Assembly (NCBI GenBank): GCA_026416845.1 | Contig: JAOAEL010000002.1 | Coordinates: 1-42,468 of the forward strand | DNA: 42,468 nt | Direction: 5' to 3' | Origin: Patescibacteria group bacterium | Lineage (GTDB): Bacteria; Patescibacteriota; Microgenomatia; UBA8517 | Part shown: positions 270 to 2,094 of the stretch, piece by piece | Position numbering within the stretch: the first letter of the stretch is position 1 | Layout of the letters: the number at the start of each line of letters is the position of its first letter | Notes under the pieces: generated by a model | What the model was told of the DNA's origin: nothing | What the model saw: the letters and a program-made list of their open reading frames with translations, nothing else | The model's database searches: none | Position numbers and translations under genes: made by a program

Positions 270-1010
270 ATGTCAGCGTACTATGATTCATACGACTACC
301 ACTCTTATTGGGTTGGACGAGACTATGAGCATTGTGCAGAAAAAATAGCAATAGAATCAATTTTATCTAATTTAGGGGAATTTAACCATTTAATTGAAAT
401 TGGCGCTGGTTATGGCAGATTAACCAAAATATATGAAAAATATGCCAAAAAAGTAACAATTTCGGATCCATCAAAACAATTAATTTCAATTGCCAAAAAA
501 ACCATCAAAGGCAGAAAATTCTTTTTTGAAGTAGGAGATTTATCATATATGGCTCAAAAACACAAAAACAAATATGACTTGGTTATTATGGTGCGAGTGT
601 TACATCATATAGACAACATTGAAAATGCAATCAAAAATTTGTCAACAATTACAAGAAAAGGCGGCTACCTTTTGCTTGAATATGCAAACAAGTTACATTT
701 CAAATCAATTTGCCGCGAAATAGCAAATGGCAATCTAAATTTTGCTTATGACATGAGTCCTAAACTCGTTGGTAAAAAACAAAAAAACTGCATACCTTTC
801 CTAAATTATCACCCTAAAATCGTATATGAAACATTGCAAAAATATAAATATAAAATACTTACAAAAAGGTCTGTATCCAACATCAGAAATTCTACTATCA
901 AAAAATATGTTCCACTAAATTTGATGCTAATTTTAGAAAAACTTTTACAGTCACCATTTGCAAAACTACATTTTGGTCCTTCTATTTTTGTTCTGGCTCA
1001 AAAAAGCTAA
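270..1010 (+). CDS. Class I SAM-dependent methyltransferase
   Basis: Motif I LIEIGAGYGR, acidic end of beta2 (ISDPS), FEVGDL, YDLVIMVRVLHH, KGGYLLLE. Confidence 0.85.
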   Translation: MSAYYDSYDYHSYWVGRDYEHCAEKIAIESILSNLGEFNHLIEIGAGYGRLTKIYEKYAKKVTISDPSKQLISIAKKTIKGRKFFFEVGDLSYMAQKHKNKYDLVIMVRVLHHIDNIENAIKNLSTITRKGGYLLLEYANKLHFKSICREIANGNLNFAYDMSPKLVGKKQKNCIPFLNYHPKIVYETLQKYKYKILTKRSVSNIRNSTIKKYVPLNLMLILEKLLQSPFAKLHFGPSIFVLAQKS

Positions 1011-1093: not shown

Positions 1094-1122
1094 TTGACAA
1101 TCCTATAATATTGTGTTATTAT
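1094..1122 (+). promoter_or_regulatory. Sigma70-type promoter
   Basis: TTGACA (1094-1099), 17 nt, TATTAT (1117-1122) with TGn extension. Confidence 0.7.
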
Positions 1123-1124
1123 TC

Positions 1125-1211
1125 ACTTACGTTCTGAGGCAAATCCGGTTATACCGAGATAAGCGTCAGGATTTTCCTTTTAGCCTCGAAGAAATTCGAG
1201 GCTATTTTTTT
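1125..1211 (+). ncRNA. Candidate structured leader RNA (riboswitch-like) or small RNA; family not assigned
   Basis: Lies between the promoter and a strong terminator; irregular hairpin TTCTGA(1132-37)/TCAGGA(1166-71) enclosing ATC-CGGT-tat-ACCG-a-GAT. Confidence 0.5.
1181..1211 (+). terminator. Intrinsic terminator
   Basis: 10-bp stem TAGCCTCGAA/TTCGAGGCTA, GAAA loop, followed by T7. Confidence 0.85.
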
Positions 1212-1338
1212 GAAAAGAGATCCGAATTTATTTCATTTTTTGTAACGCTATAAAAACAAGAACTCTTGAAAAGCAAAAAAAGATCTCAAAGTATTCAGAT
1301 ACAACTCAGACAAAATACTCTGAGTAAAAACTTATATA

Positions 1339-1890
1339 ATGAAAATTTTAATTGCCATCTTGGTAAGCTTGCTTCTGCTAAACGCAGTGGCAAGGGAATT
1401 GTGGGGCTGTACTCTCATTTCTTATTCTGCCCAAATCAAAGACGCAAGAATCAATAGATATCCAAATCCAAAATCTTTGGAAATTGAGAATATTTACGAT
1501 ACGCGCGTAATTAAATTAAGAAATTTCTTAACAAAACATAATTCTCCACTTGCTCCTTACGCAGAAATATTTGTAAAAAGCGCAGACAAGCACAATATAG
1601 ACTGGAGACTGGTGCCAGCAATCACAGGCGTTGAATCTTCATTTGGAAAAAGAATTCCTCCAAAATCATATAACGCTTATGGATGGGCAAATGGAAAACA
1701 TAAATTTGAATCTTGGGAAAGTTCTATAGAACATGTTACAAAAACACTGCGAGAAAAATATTATGAAAAAGGGGCAACTACCATAGAAAAAATCGGCAGA
1801 AAATATGCTCCACCAAGTAGTACTTGGAGCAAGAATGTAAGATTTTTTATGAATCAAATTGATCAAGAGGCAAACAATGGGAATTTTTAA
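1339..1890 (+). CDS. Secreted lysozyme-superfamily (glucosaminidase-like) cell-wall hydrolase
   Basis: N-terminal signal peptide; AEIFVKSADKHNIDWRLVPAITGVESSFGK (putative catalytic Glu in AIxxxES), NAYGW, KYAP. Confidence 0.7.
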   Translation: MKILIAILVSLLLLNAVARELWGCTLISYSAQIKDARINRYPNPKSLEIENIYDTRVIKLRNFLTKHNSPLAPYAEIFVKSADKHNIDWRLVPAITGVESSFGKRIPPKSYNAYGWANGKHKFESWESSIEHVTKTLREKYYEKGATTIEKIGRKYAPPSSTWSKNVRFFMNQIDQEANNGNF

Positions 1891-1977: not shown

Positions 1978-2063
1978 GCCGGAGTGGCGGAAATGGCAGA
2001 CGCGCAGGATTTAGGATCCTGTGAGGCTCATACCTCGTGCAGGTTCAAATCCTGTCTCCGGCA
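1978..2063 (+). tRNA. tRNA-Leu (TAG)
   Basis: Acceptor GCCGGAG/CTCCGGC, anticodon arm CAGGA-tttagga-TCCTG, long variable arm, GGTTCAAATCC T-loop; CCA not encoded. Confidence 0.95.
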
Positions 2064-2094
2064 CAGGATACAATTTTGAGAATTTGTTTTTTTG

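Follow-up and report, generated by a model that had tools for sequence, protein, structure and literature searches.

What does a strong promoter serve when the transcript that it would start runs into a hairpin and then a terminator before the next gene is reached, and how would that gene be expressed? The question is raised by positions 1094 to 1211 of a 42,468-nucleotide (nt) stretch of DNA, the whole of which is called the window here (contig JAOAEL010000002.1 of assembly GCA_026416845.1, forward strand, from a Patescibacteria group bacterium of the class Microgenomatia). An initial annotation, made from the letters alone, had described at this site a promoter, a hairpin of about 40 nt and a 10-bp terminator with a GAAA loop, and had proposed that they form an unassigned structured RNA upstream of a gene resembling cell wall hydrolases. 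All three parts were found (Table 1). The downstream gene is called gluB below and its paralogue on the other side of the element gluA; "the class" stands for Microgenomatia, and "the source family" for the family of the source organism. We have found that the element is a real structured RNA, a small one with no earlier catalogue entry, that it is spread across the class, whose members are ultra-small, uncultured bacteria, and that its association with gluB is as wide as the class itself.

The evidence for structure comes from folding and from covariation. The 87-nt stretch that was folded reached -34.9 kcal/mol, compared with -16.7 +/- 2.7 kcal/mol in dinucleotide shuffles (z = -6.7), and none of the 200 shuffles was as good. 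The hairpin at the start of the RNA is built of a basal helix, (G)UUCUGA/UCAGGA(U), a G/G mismatch, a GC/GC step, an AA/AA internal loop and a variable distal stem that ends in the tip AUC-CGGU-UAU-ACCG-a-GAU, with UAU as the apical loop. In a model-guided alignment of 59 sequences (A2), standard pairs were formed in 96.3% of the cells, against 79.2% in column shuffles, and double, compensatory changes were seen at 10 of the 14 pairs; when the partner was slid by one to three columns as a control, pairing fell to 23-47%. The same was true on a wider scale. In a class-wide alignment of 57 sequences that covers the promoter and the basal helix (A3), the nine basal pairs were formed in 513 of 513 cells and five of the nine showed compensatory changes, while the slid controls were at most 46% paired. 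About a sixth of these basal-helix cells hold G-U, which would be A-C on the opposite strand, and the structure therefore belongs to an RNA of the + strand and not to a palindrome in the DNA.

Within the helix there is an invariant core, formed by an A-U pair, then a G opposite G (49/57) or U (7/57), then a G-C pair, and about 20 nucleotides of the basal helix are conserved in sequence across the class, beyond what the structure asks for. The distal stem and its loop vary freely and covary. The internal loop is AA/GA in many Woesebacteria, with AA opposite GA or AA in much of the source family, and UU/CG in sister genera; in other orders it is absent, and the hairpin is one continuous, almost perfect helix of about 15 bp with a variable loop. 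The stretch of U that follows the hairpin measures U1-8 in the type found in the source family and U5-9, directly after the hairpin, in the other orders. No family of Rfam 15 exceeded its gathering score for the element when the window was scanned, and this holds for the c-di-AMP riboswitch ydaO (RF00379), a class to which the sequence had already been said not to belong, as it does for every other family. A 401-nt search at E <= 10 returned only meaningless matches that were driven by the terminator, and a scan of the forms from other orders returned none.

Relatives of the element were collected in several ways. In a blastn search of positions 1090-1215 against 60 relatives, the promoter and the hairpin were recovered at 72-88% identity in 15 other genera of the source family, and the terminator sequence was not conserved. 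A covariance model of the hairpin (R1, built from alignment A1) gave exactly one match per genome in 93 of 121 genomes of the source family. A second model, R2, combined the promoter with the basal helix and was built from A3; it matched 187 of 301 genomes sampled across the class, from 154 of 235 genera, nearly all of them in single copy, so that the element is present in roughly 60% of the sampled Microgenomatia genomes. Outside the class, about 280 genomes from other classes of the phylum yielded only three weak matches. One of these, in genome G432, is a true homologue, flanked by gluA on its upstream side and by tRNA-Leu(UAG) on its downstream side, as synteny would have it; its helix carries a compensatory change from A-U to C-G, and gluB is missing from the locus. 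At another place (L141, G492:C3, about 46537-46622), in a genome from outside the class, a like design was seen in other letters, with TTGACAAACCTGTAAAC...TAGAAT followed by a hairpin, CUCCUCGGCCGCAGG...CCUGCAAUUGGCGGAGGA, and U6. No gluB homologue was found within the 3.5 kb fetched around it, and this locus could be a distant relative or a case of convergence.

The promoter is conserved too. Its hexamers (TTGACA at 1094-1099 and TATTAT at 1117-1122) and the TG of its extended -10 region (1114-1115) agree with the consensus at 11 of 12 positions plus TG, and a scan of the first 6 kb of the window ranked it as the top promoter-like site. Among the 57 orthologues of A3, TTGAC and T-A-T-A-n-T are invariant or nearly so; with both hexamers kept in relatives and a spacing within the usual 16-18 nt, the sequence is predicted to be a promoter of the sigma-70 type. 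An A equivalent to position 1129 is found in 57 of 57 orthologues; its distance from the -10 hexamer is 7-8 nt in 54 of them, in 56 a pyrimidine stands before it, and A1129 is thus the putative transcription start. Taking this A as +1, the helix would start 0-2 nt from the 5' end of the transcript. The idea that the hairpin might act as an insulator, in which transcripts from the promoter would lack part of the helix, was rejected, as the predicted +1 sits at the base of the helix. The promoter spacer (1100-1116) was also conserved class-wide in the 57 orthologues. It holds a CCTATAAT/CCTATAGT block that forms a direct repeat with the -10 region (CTATAGTA ... CTATAGTA), as well as the palindrome CTATAG. 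In the 1.08-Mb source genome the spacer motif was found at one site only, the promoter of the element, and a genome-wide regulon motif was therefore rejected. The conserved block may be an operator or a second contact for RNA polymerase.

Table 1. Features at the start of the window, around the structured RNA
Feature	Positions	Strand	Basis or description
gluA 3' end (upstream glucosaminidase-like paralogue, truncated at the contig end)	1-189	+	45% identity to residues 122-176 of the open reading frame at 1339
Class I S-adenosylmethionine-dependent methyltransferase	270-1010	+	Pfam Methyltransf_11/23/12/25
Sigma-70-type promoter (predicted)	1094-1122	+	-35 TTGACA, 17-nt spacer, TG-extended -10 TATTAT
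Predicted transcription start, +1 A	1129	+	Invariant A in orthologues
Conserved 5'-terminal hairpin	1131-1172	+	Folding and covariation; 42 nt, irregular
U-rich linker (UUUCCUUU)	1173-1180	+	U-rich stretch after the hairpin in all orthologues
Intrinsic terminator (predicted)	1181-1211	+	10-bp stem and GAAA loop (1181-1204), T7 (1205-1211)
Spacer between terminator and gluB	1212-1338	+	No promoter-like site; 1-21 nt in most relatives
gluB	1339-1890	+	183-aa secreted peptidoglycan-hydrolase-like (glucosaminidase-like) protein
tRNA-Leu(UAG)	1978-2064	+	ARAGORN and Rfam; most constant downstream neighbour

The hairpin is followed by a sequence with the features of an intrinsic terminator, a stem-loop of 10 bp with five G-C pairs and then a U tract, from which its function is predicted. 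A terminator hairpin and U run, 7-12 nt past the conserved hairpin, were found in 30 of 30 loci of the source family (28 by script and two by eye), and some of these loci have two. Terminator sequences vary between genera. A similar stem, GGGRGGUAYC-GNNA-GRUACCYCCC, was seen after the element in many genera (L026, L033, L059, L066, L071, L072, L074-L076, L082 and L085), which could reflect shared descent or an extra constraint.

It had been suggested that the leader contains an antiterminator that pairs with the 5' arm of the terminator, so that the two folds would exclude each other. This pairing, GAGGCAAA with UUUaGCCUC, can indeed be drawn in the window at -10.5 kcal/mol, yet with z = -1.69 relative to shuffled arms it does not exceed chance, and the GAGGC/GCCUC complementarity is limited to the source genus. 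Over 26 distinct orthologues, the best duplex that the leader could form with the terminator 5' arm had a mean z of +0.12 relative to shuffled arms, none fell below -2, and a conserved mutually exclusive pairing was not found; the minimum-energy fold was two independent hairpins in all 26. A variant with three segments, which pairs the helix's 3' strand with the terminator 5' arm, was rejected as it is not conserved either. No conserved unpaired nucleotides fit for a ligand pocket were found, internal loops being variable or absent and apical loops variable. Thus the switch by alternative folding that the initial annotation had proposed, whether as a riboswitch or as a protein-sensing leader, was not borne out. 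The forms from other orders, near-perfect helices without conserved unpaired nucleotides, argue against an aptamer for a small molecule. The fallback of the initial annotation, a terminated RNA of about 85 nt, agrees with the data.

The position of gluB relative to the element bears on how the gene would be expressed. In 48 of 69 distinct gluB loci the ATG of gluB lies at most 61 nt from the 3' end of the hairpin, a gap into which no -10 box fits. Among the 17 gluB loci of the source family, the ATG is 1-21 nt past the U run of the terminator in 12 and 64-127 nt past it in the other five, and in some loci of other orders it follows directly after the hairpin's own U7-8 tract. There is therefore no room for a separate gluB promoter in most loci, which argues that the element is physically the 5' untranslated region (UTR) of gluB and that in most genomes gluB would depend on read-through. 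In the window, where gluB begins 127 nt past the terminator, a scan found no promoter-like site on the + strand between 1122 and 1735. An AUGG was often seen after the U tract of the hairpin even where gluB starts later (e.g. L087, L093, L095, L099, L120, L121, L126, L127); in some loci it opens a reading frame of 2-10 codons over a second hairpin, and in L120 it shares the gluB frame. Attenuation by a leader peptide or coupled to translation was considered, as AUG, CUG or UUG often follows the linker, sometimes in the gluB frame, and was rejected; many of these frames reach a stop 2-10 codons on, and no start codon of this kind is present in the window. The start codon after the U tract looks like a relic of a gluB ATG that directly followed the hairpin.

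Like the element itself, its surroundings are well conserved. In the 30 loci of the source family the order, on one strand, is gluA, methyltransferase, element, an optional gluB and tRNA-Leu(UAG). The gluA paralogue was found upstream in all 29 loci that reach far enough, the 30th (L054) beginning 36 nt before the element, and in relatives its product has an N-terminal membrane anchor. The methyltransferase (cluster c1) stands between gluA and the element in 29 of the 30; in other members of the source family and in other families gluA directly adjoins the element. Downstream, gluB is present in 17 of the 30 loci, in 12 the element is directly followed by the tRNA, and one locus ends before any tRNA; tRNA-Leu lies downstream on the same strand in 29 of these 30 loci and in 24 of 30 loci drawn from the whole class. 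The link to the hydrolase-like gene that had been noted in the window was also upheld class-wide, with gluB following the element in 69 of 83 distinct loci, and when loci were fetched by way of the gluB protein, the element was immediately upstream on the same strand in 36 of 47. The gluB product begins with a signal-peptide-like segment and matched Pfam Glucosaminidase (E = 3.7e-5, below the cut-off), an NCBIfam peptidoglycan hydrolase (1.3e-5) and the phage cell wall hydrolase of PDB entry 8yxk (E = 0.002).

The methyltransferase had its best NCBIfam match to a CmoM-like family, full-length and at 50 bits, far below the cut-off of 366 bits. CmoM is the tRNA cmo5U34 methyltransferase, and in E. 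coli tRNA-Leu(UAG) bears cmo5U34. The gene lies about 1 kb upstream of tRNA-Leu(UAG), which may be a coincidence. No terminator was found between its stop codon (1010) and the promoter. A sequence, GAAGGACC, that had been taken up as a divergent conserved motif upstream of the element was rejected, as it is the reverse complement of the region encoding HFGPS at the C-terminus of the methyltransferase.

The element has also been kept where gluB is gone. Seven genomes in which the element is followed by the tRNA have gluA only, with no gluB anywhere in the genome, and they keep a high-scoring promoter, hairpin and terminator, with distal stems that are different and compensated; in gluB-less genomes tRNA-Leu has its own TATAAT box just past the terminator. 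In L037 a decayed gluB remains, a 77-aa remnant with the signal peptide and the C-terminal motif only, which shows gluB loss in progress. Altogether gluB has been lost in at least 12 genera, and the membrane-anchored gluA is always present. Since the promoter, the hairpin and the terminator outlast gluB, the short RNA, or a protein that it binds, probably has a further, gluB-independent role. The element in fact has what would be looked for in a stand-alone small RNA gene, a conserved promoter and a terminator of its own, both predicted, and retention in gluB-less genomes. The RNA is not significantly complementary to the gluA or methyltransferase 5' regions (z of -1.7 to +0.7), and no conserved single-stranded seed was found, as the conserved nucleotides sit in helices and the loops vary. 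A trans-acting RNA that works by base pairing was therefore rejected. No homologue of Hfq, CsrA or CspA was found in the source genome, in which RNase III and one homologue of NusG are present.

The explanation that we favour is an attenuator-type leader, to which, in outline, we give an even chance of being right. The conserved strong promoter would fire constitutively from about A1129, and the first 44 nt of the nascent RNA would fold at once into the hairpin. In the source family most polymerases would stop at the terminator and release an RNA of about 83 nt, whereas in other orders the stop would be the hairpin's own U tract, the released RNA being some 50-85 nt overall. The fraction that reads through would make gluB mRNA and go on towards tRNA-Leu(UAG). 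Such a leader may keep a potentially dangerous wall hydrolase low despite the strong promoter, and the read-through mRNA would gain a protected, base-paired 5' end. Control would work without an alternative fold of terminator and antiterminator, and any regulation of read-through would most likely lie with a factor that targets the conserved core of the basal helix, with an RNA-binding protein or RNase III as candidates. Termination is probably efficient, and the helix is probably bound by a protein. Several points weigh against this model. Retention without gluB fits a pure cis-regulator poorly, the conserved promoter spacer is left unexplained, and a weak, non-consensus promoter is possible in the 127-nt gap of the window. 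Furthermore, the start site, the efficiency of termination and the read-through on which the model leans are all predictions from sequence, and a strong terminator between promoter and gene with no known way past it makes for an incomplete mechanism.

Other explanations draw on the same evidence. It is possible, although we would not expect it, that the element is a stand-alone gene for a small RNA of about 83 nt whose helix binds a protein, as a decoy or in a small ribonucleoprotein, with gluB served by leaky read-through and adjacent only by gene order. The RNA occurs once per genome across the class, as housekeeping RNAs do, has a near-consensus and conserved promoter of its own and always a terminator, was kept with compensatory changes in at least 12 genera without gluB anywhere and in the out-of-class genome without it at the locus, and carries its most conserved nucleotides in a helix around a G-G or G-U mismatch, which would suit recognition by a protein. 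It is weakened by the lack of a conserved single-stranded seed, with loops that vary in sequence and length, by the insignificant complementarity to the neighbouring 5' regions and the lack of Hfq, CsrA and CspA homologues in the source genome, and by those gluB loci, the majority, that leave no room for another promoter and so would make the RNA physically the 5' UTR of gluB. Far less credit is due to a small-molecule riboswitch, in which the hairpin would be an aptamer and a ligand would choose between terminator and antiterminator. The layout of promoter, structured RNA, terminator and gene would suit it, as would the purine internal loop, AA opposite GA or AA, conserved in much of the source family, and the link to a cell wall hydrolase gene is reminiscent of switches of the ydaO class. 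Against this, the antiterminator pairing is not conserved, the loop becomes UU/CG in sister genera and gives way to a helix of about 15 bp in other orders, no Rfam riboswitch family matched, and the element is kept where no regulated gene follows. Because there are no conserved unpaired nucleotides from which a pocket could be made, we rate it as very improbable.

The hairpin might instead gate translation or serve as an RNA thermometer, if UAGGAU on the 3' side of the basal helix, together with U7-8 and the AUG, formed a gluB ribosome-binding site that is hidden until the helix is melted or cut. The AUG of gluB indeed lies 7-8 nt past the AGGA of the 3' strand in L098, L119, L130, L133, L087 and L120, its complement UCCU stands on the 5' strand, helices that can melt typically contain G-U pairs and mismatches, and RNase III is encoded in the source genome. 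However, other genes in these genomes mostly lack a Shine-Dalgarno sequence, so that AGGA may not serve as one; in the source family the terminator separates the ATG from the hairpin, and the 3' strand is often AGAA or GGAA; and the retention of the element without gluB is not explained, which leaves such a gate improbable. In L119, L130, L133, L098 and others, most genes were seen to lack a Shine-Dalgarno sequence and often have a -10-like box a few nt before the ATG, which suggests leaderless initiation or initiation without a Shine-Dalgarno sequence; the AGGA-U8-AUG before gluB is an exception among them. It is unlikely, if somewhat less so, that the element has no regulatory role, the hairpin being a stabilising 5' stem-loop of the gluB mRNA and the terminator the end of the gluA-methyltransferase operon. 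A helix 0-2 nt from the predicted +1 has the geometry that protects from 5'-end-dependent decay, and no other terminator follows the stop codon of the methyltransferase ahead of the promoter. But a stabiliser needs structure only, and the class has kept the sequence of about 20 basal-helix nucleotides and of the entire promoter spacer; transcripts from the promoter would themselves be terminated, as the terminator lies downstream of it, and the unit is retained after gluB is lost. Finally, the element was considered as a highly divergent signal recognition particle (SRP, 4.5S) RNA of the lineage, because no SRP RNA was detectable in the class. In favour are its length of about 85 nt, its hairpin shape, its single copy and its own promoter, and AGG and AGC motifs are opposed in its hairpin, loosely as in SRP helix 8. 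The conserved GNRA tetraloop is missing, however, the distal stem and loop being variable, and the protein partners Ffh and FtsY are absent too. Therefore the element is not the SRP RNA, and we regard this identity as barely conceivable and have rejected it.

The apparent loss of the SRP pathway is an observation separate from the element. The survey covered 61 genomes, the source genome (G000) and 60 relatives, from 56 genera and 13 families. The SRP RNA model RF00169 found nothing in any of the 61 genomes and RF01854 nothing in 37; no Ffh M domain was above the cut-off in the 61, nor was any SRP54-type GTPase (Ffh or FtsY). In 14 reference genomes that served as positive controls, both protein domains were found in all 14, RF00169 in 13 and RF01854 in 11. 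A tblastn search with E. coli Ffh against the source genome, which is 96.8% complete, gave a best E of 2.3, compared with about 1e-45 for NusG and RNase III as queries. The whole SRP pathway thus appears to be missing from the class, judging by these searches, and in the literature that was searched for SRP loss in Microgenomates or the Candidate Phyla Radiation no mention of it was found.

Taken with the attenuator-type leader, the findings allow one bolder proposal. A unit that resembles an attenuator, has no alternative fold and outlives the gene downstream of it speaks for a protein partner. The RNA of about 83 nt may be the RNA subunit, or the decoy, of a ribonucleoprotein specific to Microgenomatia, in which a lineage-specific protein on the helix core would couple gluB synthesis to the state of the cell by processive antitermination or by protection of the 5' end; we offer this as a speculation that is more apt to be wrong than right by some distance. 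If true, it would amount to a new class of housekeeping RNA in a class of bacteria that also lacks the SRP pathway. To our knowledge the Candidate Phyla Radiation has yielded hardly any conserved non-coding RNAs, and in none of its members has gene regulation been the subject of bench work; a search of the literature on RNA motifs in Microgenomates and the Candidate Phyla Radiation found nothing relevant to the element. It is a clean case, a single-copy RNA with strong covariation that is tied to a pair of peptidoglycan-hydrolase genes and to a tRNA gene. It gives a covariance model for annotating Microgenomatia genomes and a promoter and terminator pair for the lineage, and the promoter, 44-nt leader and terminator make a tractable in vitro system for the control of wall remodelling in ultra-small bacteria.

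Several known systems resemble the element in part. Like the attenuator leaders of pyrBI and trp, those of the PyrR type and riboswitch platforms, it has a structured leader close to its promoter, a terminator before the open reading frame and, as predicted, a short RNA as the default product; it differs from them in having no antiterminator fold, no conserved leader peptide and no known ligand or protein, and in surviving the loss of the downstream gene. The ydaO (c-di-AMP) riboswitch and the orphan lysM and NLPC_P60-type RNA motifs are found upstream of cell wall hydrolase genes, and the element shares with them the place of a structured RNA 5' of a peptidoglycan-hydrolase-like gene. It is, however, much smaller, a single hairpin with no conserved pocket and no match in Rfam. 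Stem-loops at the 5' end, such as that of the ompA leader, are known to protect from 5'-end-dependent decay, and the element's helix, 0-2 nt from the predicted 5' end, would be placed in the same way, but its basal part is also conserved in sequence, and a terminator follows. Like the small SRP RNA (RF00169), the element is a hairpin of about 85 nt that occurs in single copy and has its own promoter, but it fails the model, lacks the GNRA tetraloop and occurs in a genome without Ffh or FtsY. The late promoter PR' of lambdoid phages makes a short terminated "6S" transcript that is extended through antitermination by Q, which in lambda binds between -35 and -10. In both cases a strong promoter gives, or for the element is predicted to give, a short terminated RNA just upstream of a gene for wall lysis, and conserved sequence lies between -35 and -10. 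Unlike PR', the element has no identified Q-like protein, with one NusG homologue only in the source genome; it is chromosomal, class-wide and syntenic rather than part of a prophage, and the structure of its RNA covaries.

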